The notes beneath the pieces are model-generated. The model was not told where the DNA came from. It searched no databases and saw only the letters and a program-made list of their open reading frames with translations. A DNA stretch of 64,000 nucleotides from assembly GCA_964409875.1 (NCBI GenBank), contig CAYPEN010000002.1:210630-274629 (forward strand), given 5' to 3'. The stretch comes from an uncultured Gammaproteobacteria bacterium (GTDB lineage Bacteria; Patescibacteriota; Microgenomatia; Levybacterales; GWA1-39-11). Positions 5,452 to 28,979 of the stretch are shown piece by piece (the first letter of the stretch is position 1; each line of letters begins with the position of its first letter). The position numbers and the translations under genes are program-made.

Positions 5452-5731
5452 TCCGCGATAGCTCAGCGGTAGAGCAGGAAGCTGTGTTAGCAGCTCTTGA
5501 TGGAAACGTCAAGATGAATAAGTGGGTGAATTCAGGGAACGTTTCAACAACCCTGAGCCAAGCCCTTTCTGCAAAAAAGAAAGGGAAGGTGCAGAGACTA
5601 GGTGAGTACACCAATTAGCGCCCACCACCTACATCTTTTTAAGACATGGTGATGAGATAGTCCAAAAAGTAAAACAAATAGTTTTACTAACCGTAACTTC
5701 AAGGTCCTAGGTTCGAATCCTAGTCGCGGAG
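5452..5731 (+). tRNA. intron-containing tRNA, most likely tRNA-Asn(GUU); exon 1 5452..5485, exon 2 5694..5731
   Basis: Exon 1 is TCCGCGA-TA-GCTC-AGCGGTA-GAGC-A-GGAAG-CUGU. Exon 2 is UAA-CUUCA-AGGUC-CUAGG-UUCGAAU-CCUAG-UCGCGGA-G. Spliced product is 72 nt with a perfect 7-bp acceptor stem, D-arm, T-arm GGTTCGAATCC and anticodon loop CU-GUU-AA. The two halves are 208 nt apart. Confidence 0.75.
5486..5693 (+). ncRNA. group I self-splicing intron inserted in the tRNA anticodon loop (between nt 35 and 36)
   Basis: Exon ends in U (U-1). 'GCAGCU' at 5490..5495 can pair with exon 'AGCUGU' to form P1 with a terminal U·G. Intron ends in G (omega-G, 5693). Conserved core elements: R-like 'GUGCAGAGACUAG' (~5595) and S-like 'GAGAUAGUCC' (~5654). 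A P5-like stem 'UCAGGGAACG...CCCUGAG'. No ORF inside. Confidence 0.7.
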
Positions 5732-7321
5732 CAAAACAGGACGATGAAGATAAAAATCGTCCATTTGGACTGTTATATCAGCCTTTATTGGTGGTTCGAA
5801 AATCCTCGCAACTATTATGTCGTTTCTTTCCTCTTTCGAACTGATAAGCTCATTTGTAAGCTCGACCAGCTCAAGGAGTAATTTGAATGCTTTGGAATAA
5901 TTTGCAATCAGTTTTCCGTTTTCCAAATATAGGTCTGAAAAAACAAGGTTCGTTAATAGTCTCTTGTCTTCTTTCTGCGCCTTTTCATAAATGATATTTG
6001 CCCGTTGAGATAGTTCATACAAACTAGAACCCAATTCATAATATTTTTCATTCGCATTAGTGTGCTTCTCCAGAGACTTTGCTATGTCTTTTAGCTCTTC
6101 GAGGTAACGCTTTGAGCTTTGTGTGTAAAACGTCTCTGTAATTTTTTCATCCAGTTTGTCTTCGTACATTTTCTCCAGACGTTTATTGAGTTGCGTCTGA
6201 CGTTGATTAAGTTCATTGAGTGAAGAAGAATGATATTGAATTTTATCTTTATGTCCTTCTTTAAGTGCTTTTCGCACCCATTCAACAATACGGGGATTAT
6301 TTATACGTAACTTCCCAAACTCTTTGGCCAGAGCTTCTACTACTTCTTGCTGGGTATACCATATCTCCTGAGAGCAATCTTTATAACCGTTACAATGCCC
6401 ATAGACGATTCCTTTATGGATTTCCCAGGTAATTAACCCTCTGCATTCCATACACCGAAGCATACCTTGAAAAAGATGATTGTGTTTTCGATACTTTGGC
6501 GTGCTCTTGCTCCTCAATACTTCCTGCACCTTAGAAAATAAATCGTCACTGATAAACTGCTCGTGATTACCCTCATATAAAGCGTCATTCCATCTGATTT
6601 TTCCAATATAGAAAGGGTCAGTAAGATATTGATGAATTCTACTTTTTACAATCTTATTTCCGTTAGCATTGCGAAGACCTTTCTTGTATACGAACTCAGT
6701 TAACGCTTTCAGGGAATAATTTCTACTGGCGTATTGTGTGAACATCTCAATAACGAGCGGCATTTTATCCTCATCGATAACATGAGTTTTATGTCCTTTT
6801 TCTCCGACAGTTTTGTATCCGATTGGTGGTCTTGTGGGAAGCCATCCTTGGGCTATTTTTTCTTTTTGTCCCTTCTTTACGTTTTCCGAAAGAAGTCTCA
6901 CGTAATATTCAGCAGTAGCAACTTTTACTCTCCACATGAACCATTCATGGGATTTTGAATTCCTATGCAAAATACAGCCTTCTTTTACAAGATGAATTTG
7001 ATTACTCTCATCATCCATGACCCATTTATCAATTGTGGGAACGTCTGCAAAATTTCGGGTCAAGCGGTCTGTTGTTTCTACAACCATAGCGGGAATCTTA
7101 TTGTCACGAATGAATTTAGTCATTTCGTTAAAAGTCTTCCTTTGCGTATGTCCACTTGCCGATTCTGAAATAGCAAAAACTTTTATAATCTCTAGATTGT
7201 TTTTTGCAGCATACTCACGAAGGAATTTCTCCTGGGCAGGCAGAGAGTATCCTGTTTCCTCTTGTTCTTTACTGCTTACTCTACAAAATAAAATTGCTTT
7301 CATAATCTCAAATGCCCTCAC
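5720..7321 (-). CDS. large serine recombinase (integrase)
   Basis: 533 aa. N-terminal resolvase catalytic domain with nucleophile Ser in 'ILFCRVSSKEQ'. Central recombinase domain. Cys-rich zinc-ribbon 'CMECRGLITWEIHKGIVYGHCNGYKDC'. C-terminal coiled coil. Stop codon overlaps the 3' end of the tRNA by 12 nt. Confidence 0.85.
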   Translation of the reverse strand: MRAFEIMKAILFCRVSSKEQEETGYSLPAQEKFLREYAAKNNLEIIKVFAISESASGHTQRKTFNEMTKFIRDNKIPAMVVETTDRLTRNFADVPTIDKWVMDDESNQIHLVKEGCILHRNSKSHEWFMWRVKVATAEYYVRLLSENVKKGQKEKIAQGWLPTRPPIGYKTVGEKGHKTHVIDEDKMPLVIEMFTQYASRNYSLKALTEFVYKKGLRNANGNKIVKSRIHQYLTDPFYIGKIRWNDALYEGNHEQFISDDLFSKVQEVLRSKSTPKYRKHNHLFQGMLRCMECRGLITWEIHKGIVYGHCNGYKDCSQEIWYTQQEVVEALAKEFGKLRINNPRIVEWVRKALKEGHKDKIQYHSSSLNELNQRQTQLNKRLEKMYEDKLDEKITETFYTQSSKRYLEELKDIAKSLEKHTNANEKYYELGSSLYELSQRANIIYEKAQKEDKRLLTNLVFSDLYLENGKLIANYSKAFKLLLELVELTNELISSKEERNDIIVARIFEPPIKADITVQMDDFYLHRPVLLRD

Positions 7322-7583: not shown

Positions 7584-7657
7584 GTTTTTTATCTCGAGAT
7601 GACTAAATGGTCACCTCTTATCTCTTCTGCACATTCTTGACTCTTGTGACAAATACT

Positions 7658-8109: not shown

Positions 8110-8481
8110 TTAGAAGGGAATATCATCTGGATTAACAACTTCTTCTGAGAACTCTCTTGTGTTTCCGAGCTCTTCATTGACCCTATCTAAAACTGCCTTG
8201 GATATTTCGAAGAACATGCTTTTGTCGGAGATGTAAACGGATTTTACATAGCTGTATCCAGCTTTATAGGCGGGCAAATCAAATACTAAAGTTTCATGGC
8301 CATCACCATTAAAATCTCTCTTCTTGATTGTTATGCCTTTGATTGTTATAAATCCGAAATCGACCTGTACGAAGGCAATAATTGAAGGATTTCCATGAGC
8401 TAATTTAATGCGTGCTGTAGCAAAATTAGTATTTAAATCTACGGGTATTTCTACCTCAATGTCTGATTTTTCCATATTCAT
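8110..8481 (-). CDS. hypothetical protein (island)
   Basis: 123-aa ORF, no recognisable motif. Confidence 0.4.
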   Translation of the reverse strand: MNMEKSDIEVEIPVDLNTNFATARIKLAHGNPSIIAFVQVDFGFITIKGITIKKRDFNGDGHETLVFDLPAYKAGYSYVKSVYISDKSMFFEISKAVLDRVNEELGNTREFSEEVVNPDDIPF

Positions 8482-8488
8482 TTAATTT

Positions 8489-8686
8489 TTAACTATGCTT
8501 ATGATTTTTCATAAACACATTGAGCGTCATATCAAACACTTTAATTCCTACAGCACGACAACTCTCGCAACAAATAAAATCGGGGTTCTCAAATAGACAA
8601 TAGTGAAGCGCTGCTCCTAAAGTCGAAAGTTCACCTTCACTTAGGTCAAGTACGTATCTGATTTCCTCTAGCTTAGTTTTTTTCAT
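8489..8686 (-). CDS. hypothetical small Cys-rich protein (island)
   Basis: 65 aa, 'CxxC...CC' content. 14-nt overlap with the upstream ORF suggests an operon. Confidence 0.3.
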   Translation of the reverse strand: MKKTKLEEIRYVLDLSEGELSTLGAALHYCLFENPDFICCESCRAVGIKVFDMTLNVFMKNHKHS

Positions 8687-8948
8687 AGGTTCCTTTCGTT
8701 TTCTCGTGAATTCGCGTTTTTAATTCATTAATTGTTTCTATGAGGAGACGGGATTCTACCTTGAGACTTCTATCCCAATGCTTTTTTATGATTTCTTCAC
8801 ACTTAACTGGAGTTGCAGAAAATTGAAAAGTGATGAATCTTCCGTTGCCACTTATGAGGCTAGTAAGAGGTATTCCGCTTGCTCTAACAAGCACTGCAGA
8901 ATAGAAATCATTTGTTTGCCAAGTTGTATTTTTATCTTTCATCTCCAT
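8673..8948 (-). CDS. hypothetical protein (island)
   Basis: 91-aa ORF overlapping the next gene by 14 nt. Confidence 0.35.
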   Translation of the reverse strand: MEMKDKNTTWQTNDFYSAVLVRASGIPLTSLISGNGRFITFQFSATPVKCEEIIKKHWDRSLKVESRLLIETINELKTRIHEKTKGTYEKN

Positions 8949-9019
8949 AAAAAAACTCTGAATTGTTTGAGTATCCAGAGTTTATAAAACGGAGCGATAT
9001 GGATTGAGACGTTATTTTT

Positions 9020-9844
9020 CTACTTTTTAAGCATGACTTTTTGTCTTTCTTTTAATCTTTGCTTCATTTTTCGAAGTGTATTGGCTTTCTTTTTGAGTTC
9101 ATCGTTATCGGCATGTTCGTATATCTCGGCCGCTTGTATCGTCGAGGTAATTTTTTCCTGAATTTTTCCATCAACGGAATCATAGTAAGTACGTTTTGTG
9201 CCAATCTCACCAGTTTTTAAGGATTGTGTTAAGTTACGTATTCGTCTGTGTTTATTTTTACTCATAGATAACGCTTGTAAAAGGCTTCTATATGCGGACT
9301 GCGCTTTTTTTGACGGTCTTCCCTTAATACCAACGTTGTTTTTGACAGTTCTACGAACATATTTCTTTTCCTGTGTGGTGAGCGGTATCCGTTGCAACTC
9401 ATCAGGGTTACTCATGATGTCATTCGGGAGTTCAGTGTTATAAAGTGGGGTCCATGGAGGTTGCCCATACAATACAAAGTATTGCATCCAGTCGTAGAAA
9501 CCAATAGGCAAGCCGTAGCTGACAAGTAAATGATTTATCCGTTTTTCGAATATGTCCCTAGTAGATTTATCCTGAGTTCTTAACCAAAAAGATTCTGCAT
9601 CAATATAATTATCATATTCAAAAGATTCCACATCTTTTTCTGAATTCAACTTTGGAATGCTCAGCTCTTTTCTCAACCCTTTTATGTCTTTCTTGAATCC
9701 AGTATCACTTTTTAAGTATGTCGAGAGTTCTCGATTTAATTCTTTTCGTGTTCCGAAATACTTTGTGTCTGCTTCATGCTTAATCGCATCTTGCATCAAT
9801 TCTCCAAGAGGGGATAACTTCGGCAAGTTCTTATTTCTCTTCAT
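9020..9844 (-). CDS. hypothetical protein (island), basic/charged
   Basis: 274 aa, Lys/Arg-rich termini. No motif recognised. Largest cargo ORF of the island. Confidence 0.45.
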   Translation of the reverse strand: MKRNKNLPKLSPLGELMQDAIKHEADTKYFGTRKELNRELSTYLKSDTGFKKDIKGLRKELSIPKLNSEKDVESFEYDNYIDAESFWLRTQDKSTRDIFEKRINHLLVSYGLPIGFYDWMQYFVLYGQPPWTPLYNTELPNDIMSNPDELQRIPLTTQEKKYVRRTVKNNVGIKGRPSKKAQSAYRSLLQALSMSKNKHRRIRNLTQSLKTGEIGTKRTYYDSVDGKIQEKITSTIQAAEIYEHADNDELKKKANTLRKMKQRLKERQKVMLKK

Positions 9845-10094
9845 ATTACATTTAATTTGTGCTTATTATACTAGATGGATATATTTGATTAAGATGATAT
9901 AGTTTATCTTTCTTTTATAATTCTAAAAATTGTCTTGTAAAACGCTCTTCTGATGAAGTTATTGTGGTCAATATCACATTAAAATATGTATAAAAAGCCT
10001 TACAAACTTATATATAACTGCAAACTAACGCATTCCGCTTTAAAAAGAATTAGAAAAACATGCAGAGGTTATCCTGTAATCAGAAAAGAAGTGC

Positions 10095-10322
10095 TTAAAA
10101 AGGTATAATTTTATTTACTTTTATTTGAAGTGCATTTGCAATCTTTTCCAAGGTTTTCATGCTCGCTTTCCTATGACCTGTCTCAACAAGACTAATAAAT
10201 GTTTGCGTTAAGTGTGTTTTCTCAGCAAGCTCTTCTTGAGTCATGCCTTTATCAGTTCTCGCACGAGCTATTGCTTTTCCTAATGCCTGTTCCTTCTTAG
10301 TTATTTTTTGCCTGTCTTTCAT
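10095..10322 (-). CDS. XRE-family helix-turn-helix transcriptional regulator (cI/Cro-like)
   Basis: 75 aa. 'LGKAIARARTDKGMTQEELAEKTHLTQTFISLVETGHRKASMKTLEKIANAL' is a canonical HTH_XRE. Confidence 0.8.
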   Translation of the reverse strand: MKDRQKITKKEQALGKAIARARTDKGMTQEELAEKTHLTQTFISLVETGHRKASMKTLEKIANALQIKVNKIIPF

Positions 10323-10358
10323 ACCATATCAAAAGTAACAAACACCCCTCAAAAAGTT

Positions 10359-10419
10359 TATTAACAACTGGTTATATTTCGAGGCCAAACTATTGCAATT
10401 CTATTAACTGGAGGTTATT
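10359..10419. promoter_or_regulatory. divergent promoter region with two related 17-bp motifs (putative operator sites)
   Basis: 'TATTAACAACTGGTTAT' (10359..10375) and 'TATTAACTGGAGGTTAT' (10403..10419) lie between the divergent XRE repressor and the 10443 gene. Confidence 0.25.
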
Positions 10420-10442
10420 ATGTTTTTGGGCCAATTTACACT

Positions 10443-10739
10443 ATGAGAGAGTACAAACACGCTAGGTTGATTGCGGGAATTTTATTTATTGGAGGATTAG
10501 TATTTAGTTTTTTTGTATTTGGAAAATCAGACTTTGTTTTGGTATTTACTTTAATTATTGTGTTTTCTATAGCTGGGATGCTCACTGGTCAAGAAATTGT
10601 TTACGACAAGCTTGGTAAAATGCACTATACGTTCTTTGAAGATGAAGCCAAAAAAAGGCGCGAGAAAGATGAAGAGTTATCAAAAAAGGTTCAGGAATCA
10701 ATGAAACAGTATGAAAAAGAACATCCAGAAACGAAATAA
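10443..10739 (+). CDS. hypothetical membrane protein (2 TM)
   Basis: 98 aa. Hydrophobic N-terminal half 'LIAGILFIGGLVFSFFVFG...LIIVFSIAGML', charged C-terminus. Confidence 0.4.
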   Translation: MREYKHARLIAGILFIGGLVFSFFVFGKSDFVLVFTLIIVFSIAGMLTGQEIVYDKLGKMHYTFFEDEAKKRREKDEELSKKVQESMKQYEKEHPETK

Positions 10740-11076
10740 GAGAGAGTTAATAATAGGAATTTCTTGTATTTTAATTGGTGCAATTATTACTTATCTGTTA
10801 ATAGGCAACAAAATAAAAGAACAAAAGAATCTAACCTCACGTATACTGAAAAACTCAATTCAAAGCATGGAAGCCTCCAATGAACTTGCCAACTCATGTG
10901 CTGACGCGTACAAAACCGCTACTGCCTGTGTTACTAATCTTCAGTCATGCAATATTTTAGAAGAATCAAAAAAATTAGACGAATACAATACAAGAAGAAA
11001 ACATGCGGACACTATTATCGACTGGGCCAACAAAGACATGAAGCAGATTATCGAAGAAGTTTCGACTAAACATTAG
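10711..11076 (+). CDS. hypothetical membrane-anchored protein
   Basis: 121 aa, single N-terminal TM 'LIIGISCILIGAIITYLLIG'. Overlaps the upstream ORF. Confidence 0.4.
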   Translation: MKKNIQKRNKRELIIGISCILIGAIITYLLIGNKIKEQKNLTSRILKNSIQSMEASNELANSCADAYKTATACVTNLQSCNILEESKKLDEYNTRRKHADTIIDWANKDMKQIIEEVSTKH

Positions 11077-11079
11077 TTT

Positions 11080-11295
11080 ATGGGAAGAAAAAGGAAGAAT
11101 GGAGTCTTAATTGATTTCGTGGTGGAAACGATTATAAAAGAACAATATGTTAGTGTTCCATTTATCCAGAGAAAATTTCAAATAAGCTATTCGACAGCAA
11201 GAAAAATCATTTCAAAACTGTTTGAAATGGGATATATCGAAAATGAAACTGAGTTTAAAGATATAAAAGTAATAAAACACAAATATATACAATGA
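11080..11295 (+). CDS. small winged-helix protein resembling the FtsK gamma domain
   Basis: 71 aa. 'YVSVPFIQRKFQISYSTARKIISKLFEMGYI' resembles the FtsK/SpoIIIE gamma wHTH consensus (…SISAVQRKLKIGYNRAARMIEAME…). Confidence 0.4.
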   Translation: MGRKRKNGVLIDFVVETIIKEQYVSVPFIQRKFQISYSTARKIISKLFEMGYIENETEFKDIKVIKHKYIQ

Positions 11296-11449
11296 AAAAG
11301 TTAATCGGAATATTTAACACTAAAATAAATACACCAGATGAAATTTATCAAAAAGTAAAAGAGGTTCTTGAAAATAGAAACAAAAAAAACTTAATAAACC
11401 TGAGAAAGGTAGCAAATGATGATATTCATAAGAAGTTTAAAAATATAGC

Positions 11450-12331
11450 TTAATTATTTTCTGGTGGACAATCTACAAGCTCTGTCTCGATAGTTGCGTG
11501 TTCAATGTGAAATTCTTCTTTTAGCTTTTCTTTAATTTCTTTCACAACCTTTATACTTTCTTCTAAGGTGCATTTTTCAATTGTAATATGACAGCTAAGT
11601 GCCGAATCATGAGACGAAATTGCCCATGCATGTAGGTCATCAGCGTTCTTTACATTTGGAGTGTCCAATACTGCTTTCTTTATTCTTTCCATATCTAATC
11701 CTTCAGGCACGCCCTCTAATAGAACATGCACAGCGTCTCTTACTACGCTCCAACTTCCCCGAATAAGAAATACGCCAATAACAACACTAATTAGTGAATC
11801 GAAGATAGACATACCTGTGATAAGAATCAGAACACCTGCAATAAGTGCACCAACTGAAGCTAATGCATCAAAAAGCATGTTTATGTAAGCACTCCTGATG
11901 TTTAAGTCTTTCTTTTCGCTTCTAAAAAGCAACGCGATGCTAAGATTTACACATAGACCAATAAAAGCTACTATCACCACAACCCCACCTTCAACTGGAT
12001 GAGGAGTTAATAATCTTTGATATGCCTCGTAAAAAATATATAGCGCGAGAAGAAACAGTATTAAACCATTTATCAAAGCGGCAAGAATTGTAGCTCTACC
12101 ATACCCGTAAGTATGGTCAACATTTGCCTTTCTTTTTGAAATCCTGTTTGCTAAAAATGAAATAAGAAGAGTTAGCGAATCAGTGAGGTTATGACCTGCA
12201 TCTGAAATAAGAGCAAGGCTTCCCGAAAGAATTCCAGCGATGAATTCAATAACTGTAAACCCAGTATTCAGAACTAGTCCTATTTTAAGTTTCCTATCTA
12301 ATTTTTCAGGGACGCTGTGATTTTCGCTCAT
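11450..12331 (-). CDS. cation diffusion facilitator family metal efflux transporter (CzcD-like)
   Basis: 293 aa. TM domain with 'HNLTDSL' and 'LISDAGH' His/Asp metal-site motifs. C-terminal cytoplasmic domain. Confidence 0.85.
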   Translation of the reverse strand: MSENHSVPEKLDRKLKIGLVLNTGFTVIEFIAGILSGSLALISDAGHNLTDSLTLLISFLANRISKRKANVDHTYGYGRATILAALINGLILFLLALYIFYEAYQRLLTPHPVEGGVVVIVAFIGLCVNLSIALLFRSEKKDLNIRSAYINMLFDALASVGALIAGVLILITGMSIFDSLISVVIGVFLIRGSWSVVRDAVHVLLEGVPEGLDMERIKKAVLDTPNVKNADDLHAWAISSHDSALSCHITIEKCTLEESIKVVKEIKEKLKEEFHIEHATIETELVDCPPENN

Positions 12332-12354
12332 GAATTAATTCTAGCACTTAAAAT

Positions 12355-12570
12355 CTAAACCAGTGGAGTAGCAGAATAACCGACAGTCTTTATTATATTA
12401 ATAATTTTTTGAAGATTAATCTTGGAATCATCAAACTCAATCTCCGTATGTTGCTTTGCATAGTTTGTGTTAGAACTTTTAACTCCATCTGTATCCTCAA
12501 GTTCTCCATCTATATTCATAGCACAACTCGTACAATGCATTCCTTCAATTTTAAGTTTTAACTTTGTCAT
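12355..12570 (-). CDS. copZ: heavy-metal-associated (HMA) domain copper chaperone CopZ-like
   Basis: 71 aa with 'GMHCTSCAMNI' (MxCxxC). Confidence 0.8.
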   Translation of the reverse strand: MTKLKLKIEGMHCTSCAMNIDGELEDTDGVKSSNTNYAKQHTEIEFDDSKINLQKIINIIKTVGYSATPLV

Positions 12571-13706
12571 ATTACGTTAATCACCCCTCTATACATTCCC
12601 ATACTACATGAAAAGGGAATTTGTGTTGGTTTATCTGGCATTTTCAATGCGAAAGTTTCAGTATTCCCAGCCTGAACAACTTTTTGATATTTAAAATATG
12701 GAATCGTAATAGCCGATGCACAAGTATATGTTCCTGCATTCTTAATCTTGAATGATACTGTTGTTCCTGCTTTAACTGTAATTTGATTTGGGACGTATCC
12801 TGATTTTTCAATATCAATCATTACGTTTTGGGATGGTTTGGCTTCAGCTGATACAGCTGTAGACTTTGCTGGTTTATTAAATAAGCTATTTAAAGTCCAT
12901 GAGCTACCTGTTAATGCCAGAATGTTATTTAAATTAAATACTGCAAGAAGGATAAGAACTACAGCTGCAAATTTCATAAATCTGTTTTGCATTGTTTCTC
13001 CAAGTCTTGTGGCAAAATATCCAAGAATAAAAAAGAGAGGAGAGGTGCCCAATACGAATGCGAAAAGAATAGCAGCACCCAAGAATGGACTACCTGAACC
13101 TATTGCTAATGCCATCATTGCTTGCGTAATGCCACAAGGAATTAGAACGGTGAATGCTCCAAGGAGAGCTGGAGCAAATATGCTCTTGCTCTTTGATTGA
13201 TTCCTAACCATACGTGTTAATGATTTTGGAGGCTGAATGATGAAATACCTGAAGATTGGATGAACATTCAGTAAATTAAGAGCAGTGCCCACCATAAATA
13301 TCACAACTGCAAGCTGCATTATAACTTGCGTGGCTATAGACAGTTGAAATAATGAGCCAAGCCAACCAAGAAGAAATCCTAATATTGTATATGCAATTAG
13401 CTTTGCAACTAAAAATGAGAGTATTGGTACGGCATTGTCTGTCTGTTTTGTTTTTTCCTTTAAATTCTCTTCTTCTCTCTGAGCTATGGTTGCAGCGAGA
13501 AGTCCTCCCTGTACTGCAAGACAAGTAAGTCCTCCAGTAAGAAGTCCTGTTAGAAATATTGTCCATAAATTAATATTTTTTGGATTTGGTGTTGGGGAAC
13601 CAGGATTCTGTAATGAATTAATTTTAAGCAGCAAAATTCCTATTAAAACAAATGCAATTACGACTGCACCAATAAGTAATTTTTCTTTTTTAATTTTTAT
13701 TTCCAT
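12567..13706 (-). CDS. polytopic membrane permease with C-terminal beta-sandwich (cupredoxin-like) domain; putative metal transport
   Basis: 379 aa, about 8 TM helices. C-terminal soluble domain 'VTVKAGTTVSFKIKNAGTYTCASAITIP...FSCSMGMYRGVINV' with Cys/Met candidate ligands. Sits between copA and copZ. Confidence 0.5.
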   Translation of the reverse strand: MEIKIKKEKLLIGAVVIAFVLIGILLLKINSLQNPGSPTPNPKNINLWTIFLTGLLTGGLTCLAVQGGLLAATIAQREEENLKEKTKQTDNAVPILSFLVAKLIAYTILGFLLGWLGSLFQLSIATQVIMQLAVVIFMVGTALNLLNVHPIFRYFIIQPPKSLTRMVRNQSKSKSIFAPALLGAFTVLIPCGITQAMMALAIGSGSPFLGAAILFAFVLGTSPLFFILGYFATRLGETMQNRFMKFAAVVLILLAVFNLNNILALTGSSWTLNSLFNKPAKSTAVSAEAKPSQNVMIDIEKSGYVPNQITVKAGTTVSFKIKNAGTYTCASAITIPYFKYQKVVQAGNTETFALKMPDKPTQIPFSCSMGMYRGVINVI

Positions 13707-13708
13707 AG

Positions 13709-15928
13709 TTATATTTTAACTCTTTTAAGCAAGAGAGAATTCGAAACCACTGAAACGCTCGATAATGCCATAGCAACAGATGCAAGTATAGGACTAAGTA
13801 AAATACCCCATATTGGATATAGTATCCCCATAGCTATTGGTATAAGCACTACATTATATCCAAATGCCCAGAAAAGATTTTGCTTAATGGTTCTCATGGT
13901 TTTTTTGGATAATTCTATAGACGATACGACAGAATTCAGATTCTTGTTAACTAAAGTAATGTCGGATGCTTCGATAGCAACATCTGTTCCTGTTCCCATA
14001 GCAATTCCAATATCTGCTCTTGCTAGTGCTGGAGCGTCATTAATTCCATCTCCAACCATAGCAACTTTTTTACCCTCAGCTTGAATTTTTCTAACCTCTT
14101 CTTCCTTGCCTTCAGGTAAAACTTCTGCTAGAACTCGAGTGATACCTAGTTTTCCAGCAATTGCATCAGCTGTTTTTTGATTGTCACCCGTAATCATTGC
14201 AACTTCTATTCCCATCTTTTGTAATTTTTCAACAGCTTTTTTAGCCGATTCTTTTACCGTATCTGCAACTGCAATTATTCCGATTGCTTTGCTATTTGAA
14301 GCAAGAAGCATAACTGTTTTACCTTGATTTTCGAGTCTATTAATTTGTTCTTTTAGTGCATCTAGTGAAACTTTTTCTCTATTCATAAGCCTTTGATTCC
14401 CAAAGAAGAATGTATCTTTGCCAATTGCTCCCTCAATGCCATGTCCTGAAGTTGCGTTAAATTTATTGACTGACTGTGTTTTTACTTTTTGATTTTCAGC
14501 ATGGGTTACTATCGCCTCAGCAAGTGAATGCTCTGAACCTTTTTCAAGAGAAGCTGCAATACTTAAAACCTCATTTTTCTTTAAGCCATCTATCGCAATA
14601 ATATCTGTTACTTCTGGCTTACCATTTGTTAATGTACCTGTTTTATCAAATATTACGGTCTGAATCTTATTTGCGATTTCAAGACTCTCTGCATCTTTAA
14701 TGAGTATTCCGTTTTCTGCTCCTTTGCCTGTTCCAACCATTATTGCAGTTGGTGTAGCAAGACCCATTGCGCACGGACACGCAATAACAAGAACTGAAAT
14801 CATAGCAACAAGCCCATTAATATAATTGCCCGTCAATAAACCCCATCCAAAAAAAGTTAAGATGGCAATAATCAAGACGGCTGGAACAAAAATTTCAGAT
14901 ACTCTATCAGCTAGTCGTTGAATTGGAGCCTTTGAACCCTGAGCCTCTTCAACAAGCCTTATGATTTGTGAAAGCATAGTGTCTGCTCCAACTTTTGTTG
15001 CTTTCATGACAAAAGTACCTGTTTTGTTCATGGTTGCACCAATTACTTGTGCTCCAATTGTTTTATCAACTGGGATACTTTCTCCTGTCACCATAGACTC
15101 ATTCACTGATGATTCACCTTCCATAATTACCCCATCAACAGGAATCTTTTCCCCTGGTCTGACTCGAATCAAATCACCAATCAGAACCTCTTCAATTGCA
15201 ACATCAATTTCTTTCCCATCCCTAATAACTCGTGCAGTCTTTGCTTGAAGATTTGCTAGTTTTTTAATTGCATCAGAAGTGTGAGATTTTGCTCTTGCTT
15301 CAAGATATTTCCCAAGAGTTATTAATCCAATTACAACAATTACTACGTCATAATAATTGTGCTCTGTATTGAGAAATGCTTTTAGAGGTGTTTCGAATGC
15401 TGTAACTGCAAAACTGTAAATGAAAGCGACAAGTGTTCCGATGCCTACCAACGAATCCATATCTGCTTTTCTGTATTTAATGAAACGCCATAGTCCAGCA
15501 AGATATGGCCTTCCAACAACAAACATCATGTATGTGGCAAAGATGGGTAAAAGGTGATGGAAGAATTCTTTTATCGTGTAGCTCATGGGTAAAAATATTT
15601 CCCAAAGCATAATAAATGAACTAATTCCTATGAGGACAAGTGAAACAATGACATTTTCTTTAAGTTTTGAGTCATAACCCATATTCATATGGTCATGAGA
15701 ACTTTGCATGGGCTCATCAACTACTAACTCGTAGCCTTTCTTTTTAACGGCTGAGGCAAGTGCTTGCTCTGAAGTGTTTTCATCACAATTAATAGTCGCT
15801 CGATTTGTTGCAAGATTAACAGTTGCATCAGTAACACCATCAACTTTTTTAAGAGTTCGTTCAAGAACATTTACGCAAGAAGCACAATGCATTCCTTTAA
15901 CATCAAATGTTTTCTTAATTTCAGACAT
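13709..15928 (-). CDS. copA: copper-translocating P1B-type ATPase CopA
   Basis: 739 aa. N-terminal HMA '[12 protein letters not shown]'. 'CPC' motif in '[12 protein letters not shown]'. Phosphorylation site 'DKTGTLT'. 'GDGINDAP' hinge. Confidence 0.9.
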
Positions 15929-15931
15929 AAA

Positions 15932-16252
15932 TTAACTTTTTTTCTTGAACACTTGCATTATTTCCTCAATAGACTCATCTGCATTGCCTTCTTTAATTGC
16001 ATCAGCAACACAGCCTTTAAGATGATTTTCTAAAAGAAGATTTCCTGTTTCTTTGAGACCTGATTCAACTGCCTGCATTTGATGCATAACATCTATGCAG
16101 TATGCATCTTCTTCCATCATCTTAATAACTTTATCTAAATGTCCTCTTGCTATCTTGAGACGGTGAGTTATTCTTTCGTGTGTGTCTTTTGGTCGGTAAG
16201 CCATATATCCCCCTATGAGGGATATACTAAGACTATTGAAATATTTTGTCAA
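15932..16252 (-). CDS. csoR: CsoR/RcnR-family metal-sensing transcriptional repressor
   Basis: About 90-106 aa (true start may be the internal Met at ~16205). 'RLKIARGHLDKVIKMMEEDAYCIDVMHQMQAVESGL' fits the CsoR helix-bundle with Cys/His ligands. Directly upstream of copA. Confidence 0.7.
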   Translation of the reverse strand: MTKYFNSLSISLIGGYMAYRPKDTHERITHRLKIARGHLDKVIKMMEEDAYCIDVMHQMQAVESGLKETGNLLLENHLKGCVADAIKEGNADESIEEIMQVFKKKS

Positions 16253-16283
16253 GACCTTAATAGGGTTATTAAAGTGATATAAT

Positions 16284-17030
16284 TTGCCTCACATGAGAAC
16301 TCCACCAAAGAAAGTGCTTTCAAGCAAAATTAAAGATTACAAAAGGGACAAAAAAGTTCTGACCCCTCCTTTCGGCCAAATAAACATGAGTCAGGTCATG
16401 TGGCATAAAGAGATGCTTCCTGATTTTTTATGGATAGATTCTCTTGTCGTGTTCTACGGAGACATAGAAGCATCAGAGTATTACAATCGAATGCTCAATG
16501 TTTTAGACGAATACCATAAAGCTGAACCCATTCTTACAGGTACAATAAGCGATTTTGGGTTAATCAAACCCGAAGATAGACCAAAAATCTTAAAAGCTAA
16601 TAAATTTCTAATAGAAGACGCTGTTATCCACCCATTCGCAAACATAATTCGGCTTTATCCCGAGTGCCCCATGTCTTGGTTACTTGAGGGTGCGTCTTTA
16701 TACGAGCTGAATGTTTCCGACACAATTGAAGATGCAAAAAAAGCTGTTGAAAGACTATTTCCAGCCAAAGATAATCATAGTGGACTTGTAAGAGCACTTC
16801 CTCTCAATAGATTCTTTAAGCACAAAAAAGTGCAAATAACTTCAAATATGAAAGAGACAATCAAAAGCATTGAAGAATATCCCAAGGGAGATAGATATAG
16901 AGCAGAGTCTTTTGCCAGAAATCTTCTTAACATGTTCTATATGCAGGAACATGAAAAAAACCCTGACTTAGCAAAATGGAGCAAATATTTTTGGACTTAT
17001 AATTTCAAAATTTCTAAATGTGAGGTATGA
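16284..17030 (+). CDS. hypothetical protein (ORFan module gene 1)
   Basis: 248 aa, no recognisable motif. 4-nt ATGA overlap with the next gene. Confidence 0.45.
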   Translation: MPHMRTPPKKVLSSKIKDYKRDKKVLTPPFGQINMSQVMWHKEMLPDFLWIDSLVVFYGDIEASEYYNRMLNVLDEYHKAEPILTGTISDFGLIKPEDRPKILKANKFLIEDAVIHPFANIIRLYPECPMSWLLEGASLYELNVSDTIEDAKKAVERLFPAKDNHSGLVRALPLNRFFKHKKVQITSNMKETIKSIEEYPKGDRYRAESFARNLLNMFYMQEHEKNPDLAKWSKYFWTYNFKISKCEV

Positions 17031-17848
17031 AAAGAGCTGAGAAAAAACACATAGACGTTATTGAGGAATTTAGAAACTGTGGAAGAAATGCCGCAGATAA
17101 AATTATTGCCGTTCTGGAGTCCCAACAGGAAAAAATCGAAATTGATACTTACTCAAGGCATAAAGATGAAGTTGTAAACGGATTGTTCTTCAGGGTCTTT
17201 AGGTTTTACCATAGTTTTCTTATCAGTTTTCACTTCTGGGCAGCAGACATAAGTGAAATGACGTATCGAACAATGCTAGAGAGTCTTTTCTACTTGAAAT
17301 TCCTGACACATGAAAACAAAGAAGATTTGTATAAAGAGTTTGTAAAATATGGGATTGGTCAAGAAAAGTTATTCAAAGCCCATCTAGGTACTCTTCTTGA
17401 CGAAAAGAAAATTGTAAGCTCACCTGAACTCATTGATTACATTAACTCTGGCAGTGATGATGAAATATGGGATGAACTAGTCTCAATAAAATTAGCTAAC
17501 TTTGAAAACCTAAATAAATTAGCAGAAAAAATAGATTCAAAATATGATTATACAGTTCACTACCAACCATATTCGATAACCGAACACGGGCAATGGCCAG
17601 CTTTAAAAAGATTTTATCTAAAAAGGTGTAGGAATCCATTACATAGATACCATTTTATCGGCAATGCAAGGCTTCCGTATATGGATTTGAGTTTTCTGTT
17701 TTCTACATCAAATCTTTTTTACGAAGCATATCTGATTTGGATAAAAACGTATAGTCTGCCAGACGAAGTTAAGCCTATTATTGATGAGTATGCAGAGTGT
17801 GTTGGGAAAATTGAAAAACCAGATGAGAAAAATTCTGAAAAAAAATAA
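17027..17848 (+). CDS. hypothetical protein (ORFan module gene 2)
   Basis: 273 aa, translationally coupled to gene 1. No known domain recognised. Confidence 0.45.
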   Translation: MKRAEKKHIDVIEEFRNCGRNAADKIIAVLESQQEKIEIDTYSRHKDEVVNGLFFRVFRFYHSFLISFHFWAADISEMTYRTMLESLFYLKFLTHENKEDLYKEFVKYGIGQEKLFKAHLGTLLDEKKIVSSPELIDYINSGSDDEIWDELVSIKLANFENLNKLAEKIDSKYDYTVHYQPYSITEHGQWPALKRFYLKRCRNPLHRYHFIGNARLPYMDLSFLFSTSNLFYEAYLIWIKTYSLPDEVKPIIDEYAECVGKIEKPDEKNSEKK

Positions 17849-18107
17849 TACCGTCTTTCAAAAGCAGGTACTGGTATCTCACGTAGAGGGGTTTATTACT
17901 ACTGTAAAAGCTTCCCGATATAAGGGTAAACTCAGCACAGGGGGTATCAATTTTTATCAGTCAGTTCTATACTACACACTGAGGAGATAGCGAGCCTGCT
18001 GCATCACCACGTCAGGGTAGATTACCAACTCTGGCCAGTTGGAGCCGTAGAAATCGTTCCATCGCTCGAGCACCCAATCATTTTTATAACCATTCCCTGG
18101 TTAATAA

Positions 18108-18533
18108 ATGAAAAACTATTGGAAATTATTAATCCCTCTTATTATTATCATCTTCGCATTTCCCTATTCTTTTGATTTAGGCCTTTTTAAGGGTGAGATT
18201 ACAGAATATTCACTCAGTTGCGATAAGGAAAAATATGTTAACTACAGATGTTTAGAAAAATGGCTTCCTCTCAACCCAACTACCTACAAACCAAATACAA
18301 ATAAACAGCAGGTATTATATTGGACTTTATCAGATATTCAGACTCTTAAGAAATGCTCTGTAGTAAATAGGAAAAATTGGACTTGTAGATATGATGACGA
18401 ATCTGCAGAATTTGGGTTTAAGGATGGACAGTTTTGGGAAGCATCACTTGGGAAAAGCATTTCAGATGACTTATTTGAAACAAGATATGTTTCAAAACTA
18501 GAATACCGACTCGAAGAAATGAAGTGGTGGTGA
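18108..18533 (+). CDS. hypothetical secreted Cys-containing protein
   Basis: 141 aa. Signal/TM 'LLIPLIIIIFAFPYSF'. Four Cys in the mature part. Confidence 0.45.
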   Translation: MKNYWKLLIPLIIIIFAFPYSFDLGLFKGEITEYSLSCDKEKYVNYRCLEKWLPLNPTTYKPNTNKQQVLYWTLSDIQTLKKCSVVNRKNWTCRYDDESAEFGFKDGQFWEASLGKSISDDLFETRYVSKLEYRLEEMKWW

Positions 18534-18629
18534 TACCTGTAGCCCTCGACAATAGCAAAAGCCTTAAAAGTTGACGCTTCTGAGCTTCTCCCTTTTTAAT
18601 ACCCAGGAGTGATACAATAGAAGGTAATC

Positions 18630-18655
18630 GGCTGCCCATCGTGCAGCCTTTTTTT
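18630..18655 (+). terminator. Rho-independent terminator-like hairpin
   Basis: 'GGCUGC-ccaucgu-GCAGCC' followed by UUUUUUU, about 100 nt after the 18108..18533 gene. Confidence 0.5.
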
Positions 18656-18657
18656 GT

Positions 18658-19407
18658 ATGAGTAAATACAGAGCAGTAGGCAGTAAACTCAAGAACGAAT
18701 CCGATCCTTCTCTTGCAAAGGAACATAAGGCTGGGGCTGTCGTTGAATTAGTTCAACCAGCTAAGGATGATCGCTGGGGCAGATACTACTTCAATCACTA
18801 TCAGCGTTATTGGAATATCCTGAACGAATCTCGAAGACACTACAATAGAGCTCTTATTTATCTTAAAAAATGTCGTCAGTTGCCAGTCGATACAAAAACT
18901 CAAAATAGACATGTACCTGAAGAACTAAGAGACAAACTTGAAATGCACTCAATGAAATATCTTGTCCTCCTGAAGATGGGGTATGAATATATGACTCTGG
19001 AGATGTTGTCATCAATAGATCATATAGAAGAAGCAAAACAAGGTATAGCAAAGACAGATTGGGATAAGGTTGATCTATTGAAAAGAATAAGCTCATTGAA
19101 GAGCAAATTGTCCATAAGCAAAGACATCCCTGACTGTCTCTTCCCACTTTTTGATCGAAGAGACATTGTTGAACACCCTAATCAAGAGCGCTTATACAAT
19201 GCTACCGATAATGGCTGGAAAAATAATCATTTAGCATGGGTTTTAAGTGGTGATATGGAAGGGACAATGGAAAAGATTGTTGATTTTACAAGCGAAATAA
19301 TCAAAGTGTTTGATGAATATGTAAAAAATAGTCCCATTCCTGGAACATTGGAAGGAGTAGTAAGGGGATTAAAAGCATCTGAGTCATATAAAAATCCTAA
19401 AAAATAA
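18658..19407 (+). CDS. hypothetical protein (ORFan module gene 3)
   Basis: 249 aa. The start abuts the terminator-like hairpin, so the real start may be an internal Met. No motif. Confidence 0.4.
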   Translation: MSKYRAVGSKLKNESDPSLAKEHKAGAVVELVQPAKDDRWGRYYFNHYQRYWNILNESRRHYNRALIYLKKCRQLPVDTKTQNRHVPEELRDKLEMHSMKYLVLLKMGYEYMTLEMLSSIDHIEEAKQGIAKTDWDKVDLLKRISSLKSKLSISKDIPDCLFPLFDRRDIVEHPNQERLYNATDNGWKNNHLAWVLSGDMEGTMEKIVDFTSEIIKVFDEYVKNSPIPGTLEGVVRGLKASESYKNPKK

Positions 19408-19409
19408 AC

Positions 19410-19928
19410 ATGAACAACTCTAATCTTAGATATATCAATACTGCATTAGCAGGAGCTAAGTATCACGAAGATCAAGCATTTCAAGTAAGAGGTAATCAAC
19501 CAAATGATTACAATAAAATTGTTTTTCATCTGAGGGCATATTTTTGGGAGCTTTGGTCTGCTTGGGACTATGTACTGCAGGAAACAAACAGGCAAACCTT
19601 TCATTTAGAACCACATGAGGTACGCAGAAATATCCTAAATAAAGTTAGGAAAGAAGTTCCTGACTATAAATTTCTCGAACTGCTCGAATCCATTCAGGAA
19701 AATGAAAGATTAAAAAGAATTATGTGGTTGCGTGACCATGCTCATAAATGGCAAATTGAGCCATATATGATTGACCATGATGATGAAAAAGTAAATATCA
19801 TTGCCTTAAATAATCTTGATTCACGAGATAAGTTTTTAGATAGGCAAATTAACATAGATAGAAATGATTTATATTTTATGCAAGAGTTCATAAACTCACT
19901 TTCGAAGGAAGGTTTTTTTGAAGCATGA
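19410..19928 (+). CDS. hypothetical protein (ORFan module gene 4)
   Basis: 172 aa, 2-nt gap from gene 3, 4-nt overlap with gene 5. Confidence 0.4.
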   Translation: MNNSNLRYINTALAGAKYHEDQAFQVRGNQPNDYNKIVFHLRAYFWELWSAWDYVLQETNRQTFHLEPHEVRRNILNKVRKEVPDYKFLELLESIQENERLKRIMWLRDHAHKWQIEPYMIDHDDEKVNIIALNNLDSRDKFLDRQINIDRNDLYFMQEFINSLSKEGFFEA

Positions 19929-20689
19929 ACTCCTTAAAAAAACTTGAAAGAGCAAAATATCACCTCAATATACTTACTCAGGAAGTAAAAGAATTTATTC
20001 AAAGCCAACCATACAAAATTTACACTACCGAAGAAGCTAATGGAGATCTGGTTTACAGATTGAAAACTATTAAGCCTGTTCCAGAAGAGTGGAGTTTAAC
20101 AATTGGAGACATAATACATAATCTTCGTTCATCCCTGGATCTTCTGATTTCAGATCTCCTGATAAAGAATGGCAAACATCCTGATAATAGAAGTGCGTTT
20201 CCAATTTATGAAACTGAGACAGAATTGTTAAAAGATTCTCAACACAGAATTACTGGAATAACTCCAGCAGCTCGAAAAGTCATTTCCAAGATTAAACCAT
20301 ACAAAGGACGAAACCAGATACTTTGGAAGCTACATAAACTTGATATTCTTGATAAACATAAACTAATTATTCCCGTAGGATCTGCATCGAGAAGTGTAGG
20401 AATTGATTTTAATTCCTTATTGCACACTCAGGGATTTTCAAGAGATGTAAAGTTACCTCCAATTTTTATTAGACCTGCTGACACACAATTTCCATTAAAA
20501 GATGGTATGGGATTATTTTCTATATTAAAACAGGCTCGGACAGGAGGTGAGCCGCCTCCACATTCGTTTGCTTTTGATATTGCATTTGGTGAAGGAGATT
20601 TAGTAAAGGGCGAGCCTATTATAGAAACATTAAATTCGTTTGTTATAGAAGTAGAGAGTATATTAAATAAGTTCAAAAAATTACTGTAG
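19925..20689 (+). CDS. hypothetical protein (ORFan module gene 5)
   Basis: 254 aa, no recognisable domain. Confidence 0.4.
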   Translation: MNSLKKLERAKYHLNILTQEVKEFIQSQPYKIYTTEEANGDLVYRLKTIKPVPEEWSLTIGDIIHNLRSSLDLLISDLLIKNGKHPDNRSAFPIYETETELLKDSQHRITGITPAARKVISKIKPYKGRNQILWKLHKLDILDKHKLIIPVGSASRSVGIDFNSLLHTQGFSRDVKLPPIFIRPADTQFPLKDGMGLFSILKQARTGGEPPPHSFAFDIAFGEGDLVKGEPIIETLNSFVIEVESILNKFKKLL

Positions 20690-20955
20690 TTTGTGGAGAG
20701 ATAAGGAATCCTATTATTTCTTTGTTTGCCTGGAAACACATACCCCCTCCAGTATCATGATAAACTCATGGGGTTTACATGAGCTTCTACAGTAGGTAAT
20801 ACTGGGATGCTTACATAATCTTTGGTGGTGGTGTAATATGTTCGCATCTGCTCCATGAGGGAGAGCAATTAAAAAAGTCGGGTTTTATACTCAGCTTTTT
20901 TTGTTGTTTGGTAAGACTCTTTATCATGCCTTATTAATTTGATATCTTTAAACAT

Positions 20956-21387
20956 ATGACAACATTAAATCCTTGGATAAATTTCAATGGGAATGCGGAA
21001 GAGGCATTTACTTTTTATCAATCTGTTTTTGGTGGAGAGTTTACAAAAATAGTGCGTTTCAAAGATATCGCAAGCGATGAAGTGAAAATCGATGAAAAAG
21101 AAGAAAATAAAATAATGTATATTGCTCTGCCTATCGGAGACAATACAATACTCATAGCCAACGATGTCCCGGAGGCTCTGGGGGTAGTCAACGAGCATGA
21201 AAATCGAAGCAAAATTTTGGTAAGTACTCAAAGTCGCGAAGAAGCTGATAGATTGTTTAATGGCTTGTCGGTTGATGGAGAAGTAGAGGGAAGCATGGGA
21301 GACAGTCCGTGGGGCACATACGCGGGGATGTTTCGGGATAAATACGGCATTGAGTGGATAATAGAATTTTCTTCTGATAAAAAATAG
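20956..21387 (+). CDS. VOC-family (glyoxalase/PhnB-like) protein
   Basis: 143 aa. 'INFNGNAEEAFTFYQSVFGG...MYIALPIGDNTILIAND' and 'SPWGTYAGMFRDKYGIEW' resemble the PhnB/3-demethylubiquinone-9 methyltransferase-like VOC fold. Confidence 0.65.
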   Translation: MTTLNPWINFNGNAEEAFTFYQSVFGGEFTKIVRFKDIASDEVKIDEKEENKIMYIALPIGDNTILIANDVPEALGVVNEHENRSKILVSTQSREEADRLFNGLSVDGEVEGSMGDSPWGTYAGMFRDKYGIEWIIEFSSDKK

Positions 21388-27848: not shown

Positions 27849-28142
27849 CTATGACTTTGCGCTTAATCGTGCAAGCTTAATGTGGGTTGCAATGATGCCA
27901 GACATTACGAATCCAAGATAGATAAGCCCGGTAAAGCATGCAGACACGAGATGCGATGGGGTAACCATAACCAAATAAGATCCGGTCACAAAGGTCAGGC
28001 CCACCCATACATATGAAGAGAGGAGTTTTGTCTTGGAGGGATGAAGAAAAGTGTATCCGGTGAAGACAATGCTTGAAATGGCAATAATAATATGAATTAA
28101 CAACATATTAAAAGTATATACATTAATGCAAGACCATATCAA
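27849..28142 (-). CDS. hypothetical small membrane protein (3 TM) downstream of cyoE
   Basis: 97 aa hydrophobic. Overlaps cyoE by 20 nt. Confidence 0.35.
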   Translation of the reverse strand: MIWSCINVYTFNMLLIHIIIAISSIVFTGYTFLHPSKTKLLSSYVWVGLTFVTGSYLVMVTPSHLVSACFTGLIYLGFVMSGIIATHIKLARLSAKS

Positions 28143-28974
28143 GAGACAGCATGAGAGAAAACATAAGAAGCGTAATTAGGGAGAATCCGAACATTTTCCT
28201 CGCCCACCTGACACTATCTTCCATTTTAAAACCTTTCACTCCCATAAATACCCAGTACAGTGCGAGAAAAACCATAACAGAAAAGAAGACATAACCGGTT
28301 ACCCCTTTTACTAGAAGCATCACAATAAAACACGCATAAAGAACAGAAAAAATCACCATGTGTTTTTTAACAGTAATAGGCGTGCTTACCACTGACATGA
28401 CAGGTAAATGTGCGTTTTTATAATCATCGTGCCGGAAAATTGAAATGGCATAAAAGTGTGGCATTTGCCAGACAACCATTGTCATAAATAACAACATTGC
28501 TCCCACATCAAAAACTCCTGTTACCGCGCAGTATCCGACAACCAACGGTATTGCGCCGGGTATGCTTCCAACAAGCGTACTGTAGCGCGAATGTCTCTTA
28601 AAATATCCGTACACAAAAACATAAAAAACGAATCCTGTCAGGGCCAGAAGGGTAGACAGAAGGTTCGTACCGAAATATAAAATAAGAAATCCCATCACTC
28701 CCAAAAAGGAACCGTAAATAAGCGCGTTCTTGCGGGAAACACTCCCTACAACAAGAGCACGTTTTTTTGTACGGGACATCAAGGCATCGATTCTTCTGTC
28801 CATATAATTGTTAAAAACGCATCCAGACGCAATTACAAGAGCGATACCAACGGTCACGGAGAGAAACAACATCCAATCAATCGTGCCTTTTGAAGCTAGC
28901 AAAAAACCACCTATTGTCGTGATAAGGTTTCCCATAATAATTCCCGGTTTTGTAAGCGTAATGTATTCTTTCAT
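28123..28974 (-). CDS. cyoE: protoheme IX farnesyltransferase (heme O synthase), UbiA family
   Basis: 283 aa. 'NNYMDRRIDALMSRTKKRALVVG' Asp-rich UbiA motif. Last gene of the cyo operon. Confidence 0.85.
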   Translation of the reverse strand: MKEYITLTKPGIIMGNLITTIGGFLLASKGTIDWMLFLSVTVGIALVIASGCVFNNYMDRRIDALMSRTKKRALVVGSVSRKNALIYGSFLGVMGFLILYFGTNLLSTLLALTGFVFYVFVYGYFKRHSRYSTLVGSIPGAIPLVVGYCAVTGVFDVGAMLLFMTMVVWQMPHFYAISIFRHDDYKNAHLPVMSVVSTPITVKKHMVIFSVLYACFIVMLLVKGVTGYVFFSVMVFLALYWVFMGVKGFKMEDSVRWARKMFGFSLITLLMFSLMLSLDMVLH

Positions 28975-28979
28975 TGAAA

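Follow-up and report, generated by a model that had tools for sequence, protein, structure and literature searches.

A split DitA-like protein and a modular mobile cassette in a low-GC island of a probable Candidate Phyla Radiation bacterium

Introduction

Aditi, an experimentally validated anti-phage system composed of two proteins, DitA and DitB, is among the few validated defence systems in whose proteins no domain had been recognised, and protection against phages is the sole role for which DitA has been tested (Millman et al. 2022, bioRxiv 10.1101/2022.05.11.491447). HEPN proteins, which include stand-alone abortive-infection (Abi) or toxin proteins such as AbiV, AbiJ, AbiU2 and the Cthe_2314 family, are in turn characterised by an Rx4-6H motif in which a polar residue follows the Arg and which is found where a core helix ends and enters a loop (Anantharaman et al. 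2013, PMC3710099). These are the closest described counterparts of the genes discussed here, which occupy the interval 16284-20689 of a 64,000-nucleotide (nt) stretch of DNA (hereafter, the window; positions 210,630 to 274,629 of contig CAYPEN010000002.1, assembly GCA_964409875.1) from a probable Candidate Phyla Radiation (CPR) bacterium. All coordinates refer to this window unless a compared locus is named; p1 to p6 are the six proteins encoded in the interval, L-numbers designate the genomic loci compared with it and P-numbers the homologous proteins.

A previous, sequence-only reading of the interval regarded p1, p2, p4, p5 and p6 as one undescribed accessory system of ORFans without assignable motifs, organised in a two-protein and a three-protein unit. 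The five open reading frames (ORFs) are indeed where it had placed them, and so are their junctions (a 4-nt overlap between p1 and p2, a 2-nt gap between p4 and p5, and a 4-nt overlap between p5 and p6). The reading that we favour, and that we consider probable by a modest measure, is instead that the interval consists of three independent accessory pieces located on a low-GC island, and that the five genes are independent conflict genes (for defence and/or addiction). We regard them as conflict genes because of the validated role of DitA, the presence of a HEPN-type motif, the Abi and restriction-modification (R-M) genes found next to the homologs and the carriage by mobile elements; an anti-phage or toxin function, as well as all the biochemistry proposed below, is what we infer from these features. 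The outcome is a useful re-annotation and not the discovery of a categorically new system, with some details that were not expected: the conserved fission of DitA, the precise ends of a cassette, the swapping of ORF-sized units and a very large unnamed family borne by insertion sequences (ISs).

A DitA-like protein split at its inter-domain linker

The first two genes encode p1 (16284..17030, plus strand, 248 amino acids (aa)) and p2 (17027..17848, plus strand, 273 aa), which match, in the correct order, two successive parts of the DitA model of PADLOC (486 positions): p1 covers positions 3-236 (E 4.6e-13) and p2 positions 259-445 (E 4e-15), the pair being collinear with positions 3-445 of the model. 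Furthermore, p2 is a member of the Pfam family DUF5677 (PF18928), its 55.8 bits exceeding the cut-off of 27.1 and its match extending over positions 1-160 of the 166 in the profile, and the same domain is matched in all 15 aligned relatives. The claim that no motif could be assigned to these genes is therefore not sustained. When p1 and p2 are joined, 14 relatives are retrieved. Most of them are single chains of 500-573 aa, which align with 87-94% of the query and whose N-terminal half corresponds to p1. The position of the p1/p2 junction coincides with a linker of low conservation and variable length between two conserved domains. The closest relative, P0001 (L002, 10001-11242), starts exactly where p2 does and shares 4 nt with a preceding ORF of 243 aa, whose product has 57% identity with p1, so that the pair as a whole is 55-57% identical to p1/p2. 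Since L002 keeps the same split, the fission is a conserved one, as opposed to a recent frameshift, and the 273-aa p2 has also been found, identical, in several samples. Judging from their sequences, p1 and p2 are therefore the two halves of one DitA-like protein, generated by a conserved fission at the inter-domain linker, and what had been described as a multi-protein unit of two genes turns out to be a single protein of a known type.

The likeness to DitA extends to the experimentally verified proteins, although at a remote level. The sequences of the two verified Aditi systems, from Saccharibacillus and Bacillus (DitA of 483 and 490 aa, DitB of 372 and 361 aa), were taken from the supplement of the preprint, and BLASTP aligned p1 with residues 4-233 of DitA (E 7e-8 and 3e-9, with 26% and 23% identity, respectively) and p2 with approximately residues 305-392 (E 3e-5). 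Shared with DitA are the N-terminal LP(D/E)(F/Y)(L/F)WI, the FW...S.C that ends the first domain and the YGIGQxKL of the second one. Unlike Aditi, in which DitA is a single protein of about 480-490 aa from a Firmicute, the protein described here is encoded by two overlapping ORFs (248 + 273 aa) in a probable CPR host, and no DitB relative is found in the window or beside any of the homologs examined. No match to the DitA-like family exists among the PDB sequence profiles. Within the C-terminal domain, the motif S..HG.W...C.NPLHRYH is invariant in the family, and its His/Cys/His/His cluster might constitute a metal-binding or catalytic centre of DUF5677. In P0001, a NUDIX domain is fused C-terminally to the DUF5677 half, which hints at a nucleotide-type substrate. 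In another relative, P0005, the DUF5677 half is fused to a fragment of a class II aminoacyl-tRNA synthetase, which may be an artefact of the gene call.

No conserved partner of the full-length DitA-like genes could be found, the neighbours in L003, L095 and L096 being unrelated. Among the other contexts, one homolog lies on an integrase-flanked islet together with Mrr and a PDC-S39 candidate, and another one adjoins an IS110 transposase and conjugation genes. In the window, the overlapping stop and start codons might keep p1 and p2 made together, after which both would reassemble into a two-domain protein, and this split DitA-like protein would have to work without its canonical partner. The conserved natural split at the domain boundary, the DitB-less relatives on mobile elements and the NUDIX fusion provide, in any case, handles for the dissection of Aditi.

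A discrete mobile cassette with exchangeable ORFs

The similarity between the window and L005 (CAZIMC010000001.1, a 440-kb contig of a metagenome-assembled genome (MAG) labelled as 'uncultured Gammaproteobacteria') reaches 98.6% identity, but is restricted to 18581-20868: the 6 kb at either side of it in L005 show no similarity to the window, and p1, p2 and p3 are absent. Such a match reflects either a recent transfer or a mislabelled MAG. L005 also carries detox-type genes akin to those of the window (3-dmu-9_3-mt, DUF1801). A third copy, in L091, begins at the very same nucleotide as those of the window and L005 (TGAGCTTCTCCC...) and has unrelated flanks. It comprises the shared leader with its hairpin, a p4 homolog (77% identity), two unrelated genes, a p5 homolog (76%) and the tail, but not p6. 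With these boundaries, and with the modular swapping that the three copies display, 18581-20868 is a discrete cassette of 2.3 kb that moves horizontally.

The cassette starts with a 77-nt leader (18581..18657, plus strand), which includes the TGAGCTTCTCCC end, a -10-like TGATACAAT at 18610-18618 and a G+C-rich hairpin at 18630-18648 that is followed by seven T and located ten bases before the ATG of p4. Then come p4 (18658..19407, 249 aa), p5 (19410..19928, 172 aa) and p6 (19925..20689, 254 aa), all of them on the plus strand, and a non-coding tail of 179 nt (20690..20868, plus strand) that ends with ...AGGGAGAGCAA and differs from that of L005 by one mismatch in 179 nt. The sequence-only reading had described the hairpin as a strong terminator. 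The G+C-rich stem and the run of T are there, but L005 and L091 have the same leader together with p4 and have no p3, so that the hairpin is part of the leader of p4 and not just a terminator for p3. A leader conserved in all p4 homologs was considered and rejected, as it is common to the three closest copies only; in the more distant p4 homologs, a TATAAT-like box precedes the ATG by a few bases. Likewise, a structured RNA in the 179-nt tail was rejected after obtaining a z-score of -1.06, one compensatory pair and no Rfam match.

The three-gene unit is, in turn, a mosaic. The DNA that directly follows p5 in L091 is 76% identical to the tail of the window (20672-20866), and the alignment of this junction shows that p6 lies between the ancestral end of p5 and the tail, with the last few codons of p6 derived from the old p5 end. 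This comparison identifies p6 as an ORF-sized insertion in a backbone formed by the leader, p4, p5 and the tail; the insertion would have taken place at a later stage than the assembly of that backbone. One of the two unrelated genes between p4 and p5 in L091 carries a canonical HEPN motif (RNKVSH). In L091, moreover, the stretch 1707-6257 contains an HTH (helix-turn-helix) gene followed by the p4-like gene, a 234-aa gene (that with RNKVSH), a 236-aa gene, the p5-like gene and a 421-aa gene, with Terminase_2 nearby, and this string resembles an array of HEPN-like genes carried by a phage-related element.

In its general plan, this organisation is similar to that of integron-type gene cassettes or of 'moron' cargo slots, in the sense that ORF-sized units are swapped at precise points within a conserved frame, and that the defined ends of the cassette recur in unrelated contexts. 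Unlike in integrons, no attC-like site or integron integrase was seen (neither was specifically searched for), and the sole recombinase of the neighbourhood is a large serine recombinase encoded ~11 kb away. As the cassette shows, very small gene modules with precise ends are exchanged among Patescibacteria, and these modules lend themselves to study as natural 'plug-in' units.

Neither p4 nor p6 is an ORFan, as had been proposed for the five genes, since p4 has 29 homolog clusters and p6 has 10,554 cluster representatives. A word-indexed search with p4, p5 and p6 joined retrieved no relatives, which has to be ascribed to a limit of the candidate step and not to an orphan status, given that an exhaustive HMMER search (for p6) and a search with p4 alone did find them. 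A gene pair in L085 whose sizes (250 aa + 173 aa) resemble those of p4 and p5 proved to be unrelated. Between the window and L005, the ratio of nonsynonymous to synonymous polymorphism (pN/pS) is 0.14 for p5, 0.22 for p6 and 0.63 for p4, this last value being based on 7 changes only. Consequently, p5 and p6 are under purifying selection, while the changes in p4 are too few to judge, and the ORFs behave like genuine coding genes.

The remaining gene of the interval, p3 (18108..18533, plus strand, 141 aa), has a hydrophobic N-terminal segment and several Cys residues, in agreement with its previous description as a small secreted Cys protein. It has no family match, it is missing from L002, L005 and L091, and it is an unrelated small exported protein that is part of neither conserved unit.

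p4 and p5 as candidate HEPN-type proteins

The sequence-only reading had recommended looking for a HEPN fold, and the signs of it are divided. The p4 family (29 homolog clusters of ~250 aa) has no Pfam domain, and its alignment (29 sequences) contains 22 invariant columns, including R167, R168 (followed by D, I and V), E172, H173 and P174. The stretch R168-D-I-V-E-H173, invariant or nearly so in the 29 sequences, has the form Rx4H with an Asp after the Arg, as the HEPN motif demands. In the AlphaFold2 (AF2) model of p4, which has a mean confidence (pLDDT) of 79, the motif is placed at the end of the helix 161-172, which is followed by H173-P174 and by a short helix (176-180), with a local pLDDT of ~75-95. 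Regarding p5, it aligns almost in full length with the Pfam family HEPN_Cthe2314 (PF18730; residues 21-149 against positions 30-161 of 174, E 8e-5), and it includes the conserved stretch RIMWLRDHAHKWQI.

Accordingly, p4 and p5 resemble the stand-alone HEPN Abi/toxin proteins (AbiV, AbiJ, AbiU2 and the Cthe_2314 family; PMC3710099) in the Rx4H motif of p4 at a helix end, in the nearly full-length match of p5 to HEPN_Cthe2314 and in the location of their homologs, which are small stand-alone genes adjoining R-M and Abi genes. In particular, most p4 homologs stand alone, with an AbiJ-like gene, a BglII R-M pair, Terminase_2 or serine recombinase genes as neighbours. As for p5, homologs with 58% identity stand alone in L089/L090, in addition to the one with 76% in L091. 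Unlike the known HEPN families, p4 has no profile or structural match, and unlike the members of HEPN_Cthe2314, p5 stays below the Pfam cut-off and has an atypical spacing between Arg and His. Neither p4 nor p5 has an MNT or any other antitoxin partner. The terminator-like hairpin before p4 is reminiscent of type III toxin-antitoxin systems (ToxIN-like), from which the cassette differs in that its 77-nt leader has no tandem repeat array (repeat search over 18400-21000). Altogether, the membership of p4 and p5 in the HEPN superfamily is partly supported and the cassette plausibly contains a HEPN fold, in which case both proteins would be RNases of the HEPN type, acting in abortive infection or as toxins, and the leader hairpin might keep their expression low.

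p6, a large family often carried by IS1595-type elements

The family of p6 is represented by 10,554 clusters at E<=1e-3 in an exhaustive HMMER search, and has no match in Pfam, PADLOC or the PDB sequences. Its AF2 model is of high confidence (pLDDT 94.7, predicted template modelling score 0.89), and its fold finds no match in the PDB (template modelling scores below 0.2) and a single one in BFVD, to an unnamed phage protein (E 4.8e-12). The motifs GDxIHNLRSALD and LHxLDIxDKH contain the conserved polar residues D62, H65, N66, R68 and D72, on the one hand, and H137, D143, K144 and H145, on the other, a composition that suggests an enzyme. Knowing the function of this family would allow thousands of genes to be annotated.

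The motifs of p6 and DUF5677 follow each other in the same order (W..GD.IHNLR..LD and PYKGGN..LW.LH in the former, LW..D.G..LR..D and YG.GK.KL.KLH in the latter). This likeness, also noticeable as W..GD..H.LR..D and YxGGxxxLxxLH, is not significant (hhalign probability of 0.9%) and is at most a lead to a possible distant relationship.

No relatives of p4 or p5 are encoded near the relatives of p6 in 80 genomic loci. What does neighbour these, in 26 of 79 loci and typically at a distance of ~0-600 bp, is an IS1595-type transposase (Zn-ribbon + DDE). In L065, L072 and L036, terminal inverted repeats of 20, 25 and 29 nt, respectively, enclose both the transposase and the p6 relative, for which reason many members of the p6 family are regarded as IS passengers. 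The corresponding complete IS1595-family elements, of ~1.9-2.3 kb and with the p6-family gene as a passenger, span 4780-7069 in L065, 4861-6766 in L072 and 5919-7937 in L036, and the terminal repeats of the first two share a TATATACTTGAC core. Subgroups of such passenger-carrying IS1595-family elements are named in ISfinder, ISNwi1 being an example. Unlike these passengers, p6 itself has neither a transposase nor such repeats nearby and is embedded in the p4-p5 cassette, and no IS1595 transposase is present in the window, L005 or L091.

Probable conflict genes, and the readings that compete with them

Several results weigh against regarding these as conflict genes. The DitA model is the only one of PADLOC that matches any of the five genes, and its partner is missing: the DitB model has no match at E<=1 in p1-p6 and none at E<=0.1 among the scanned neighbours in L002 and L003, and searches with the two verified DitB proteins (tblastn and a hidden Markov model) yielded no relative in any of the window, L002 and L003, with a best E of 1.4. 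As DitB is needed in the described Aditi, an Aditi-type activity cannot be assumed. With respect to p4, its 29 members match no HEPN family of Pfam, with nothing at E<=1, and it has no Foldseek match in the PDB (as is also the case for p6) and no PDB sequence match, so it is the motif that its HEPN assignment has to go by. The match of p5, with 23.1 bits, does not reach the cut-off of 27.1, and its conserved RIMWLRDHAH offers either R103-x6-H110 (Rx6H) or R108-x3-H112 (Rx3H). Pairwise comparisons of the p4, p5, p6 and DUF5677 profiles with hhalign gave probabilities below 3%, all of them insignificant. Relatives of p4, p5, p6, the leader and the DitA-like family were sought on viral contigs, phages and plasmids, with none found. 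Finally, the ends of the cassette show, at best, an imperfect inverted repeat of ~10 nt (GCTTCTCCCT / AGGGAGAGC) and no target-site duplication, so that no mechanism of movement is supported by them, and a chimeric MAG is conceivable, yet three independent assemblies share the left end.

Which other readings could account for the same genes? The one that survives best, unlikely as we judge it, is that the modules consist of toxin-like, selfish genes for addiction or stabilisation, which retain a mobile element in the host instead of conferring immunity against phages. All the homolog contexts examined are in mobile DNA (with integrases, serine recombinases, IS110, IS1595, conjugation genes or a small terminase), the p6 relatives are borne within ISs, and the terminator-like hairpin that immediately precedes p4 suggests a harmful product whose level is kept low. 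Nevertheless, there is no recognisable cognate antitoxin, no MNT partner and no type III tandem repeats in the 77-nt leader, and the only role of DitA ever tested is anti-phage. Defence and addiction are, in addition, compatible with each other.

The possibility that p6, and perhaps also p4 and p5, serve the mobile element as an accessory factor of transposition or regulation, with no phage conflict involved, appears to us more doubtful still. It would be in line with the proximity of an IS1595-type transposase in about a third of the p6 loci sampled, with the terminal inverted repeats found in three of them and with the position of p4 homologs just downstream of HTH (Cro/CI-like) genes of integrative elements. 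However, ~2/3 of those loci have no adjacent transposase, the three copies of the cassette lack one as well, and where there is one, both its side and its orientation with respect to the p6 relative vary, as would be expected if the latter were cargo and not a fixed co-factor. The conserved His, Asn, Arg, Asp and Lys residues of p6 would also fit an enzyme better than a DNA-binding regulator.

A single coordinated system of five genes, as proposed by the sequence-only reading, is very improbable. Its appeal lay in the shared strand, the closeness, the tight junctions and the accessory island, but on no other contig do the two units occur together: L002 has p1/p2 without p4-p6, and L005 and L091 carry the cassette without p1/p2. 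Besides, the cassette has its own sharp ends, p6 has been swapped out in L091, p4, p5 and p6 are each found alone elsewhere, and an unrelated gene and ~800 bp separate the two units. Co-occurrence is lacking both for the five-gene set and for p6 with p4/p5, which that reading had itself named as an observation that would speak against it.

Lastly, we give hardly any credence to the view that p1/p2 is a DitA pseudogene, frameshifted and in decay, and that the genes of the cassette are hitch-hiking junk, because, although most relatives are single proteins of 500-573 aa, DitB is missing and p4 has the highest pN/pS, in L002 both ORFs are intact and overlap by the same 4 nt at ~56% amino-acid identity, the split falls exactly in the variable linker, p2 is identical in several samples, p5 and p6 have low pN/pS values, and the p4 family maintains its 22 invariant columns over 29 sequences.

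Returning to the conflict genes, a more far-reaching version, which we find rather improbable as a whole, would combine three propositions: that leader-p4-p5-tail is a new mobile defence cassette of CPR bacteria with slots for ORF swapping, that p6 represents a new class of enzymes spread by IS1595, and that the DitA-like protein acts without DitB. If this were true, the cassette would have fixed ends and internal ORF slots (occupied by p6 here and by two other genes in L091) subject to site-specific swapping, the p6 family (>10^4 clusters, no Pfam family, no PDB counterpart) would have been spread by IS1595 as defence or addiction cargo, and the DUF5677 domain would be the real effector of Aditi.

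Genomic surroundings

The primary sigma factor encoded at 3649-4737 falls in a protein cluster, built at 90% identity, with a member named Candidatus Levybacteria, and the window thus probably comes from a MAG of the Patescibacteria (CPR). The five genes lie in the right part of an accessory island with a low G+C content. Its probable left anchor is a tRNA-Tyr(GTA) gene (5452..5732, plus strand) with a 194-nt group I intron in the anticodon loop, which was found by ARAGORN with the intron search and missed with the default settings, and which matches Intron_gpI of Rfam over 5473-5689 (62.4 bits). Next to it, and overlapping its 3' end, is the gene for a large serine recombinase of 533 aa (5720..7321, minus strand; Pfam Resolvase, E 1.8e-19, and Recombinase, E 1.9e-14), an arrangement that suggests an element integrated at the tRNA. 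The G+C content is 0.42 to the left of tRNA-Tyr, 0.34-0.38 across 5733-20868, 0.39 just after it and 0.44 over the remainder of the window. A repeat of the 3' end of tRNA-Tyr, which would mark the far end of the island, was searched for downstream and none was found, so the right boundary is undefined. In the assembly of sample SRR11845633, there is a break between p2 and p3 (ends of L001 and L004, equivalent to ~18060 and 18035 of the window), which hints at strain-level variation at this point.

The neighbourhood is, as had been noted from the sequence, an accessory stretch of the defence-island type beside a mobile element, with metal-resistance genes to the left (CsoR, a Cu P-type ATPase, DsbD/cupredoxin, HMA and a CDF transporter, on the minus strand) and stress/detox genes to the right (glyoxalase, DUF1905, guanylate kinase, ArsR, AHSA1 and DUF1801). 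The start of p1 is less likely the TTG at 16284 than the ATG at 16293, which is located 10 nt after a TATAAT box and would give a protein of 245 aa, in accordance with an independent gene call in L001. Between the csoR-cop operon and p1 there is a perfect 8-bp inverted repeat (TATATCCC-N7-GGGATATA, 16204-16226). It resembles an operator of the CsoR type and, if it were one, a divergent promoter region responsive to copper might be common to this operon and the DitA-like pair. Further to the right, genes for UbiA, COX3 and COX1 (heme-copper oxidase; 28123-31902, minus strand) are present, which is unusual in CPR bacteria, if the binning is right.

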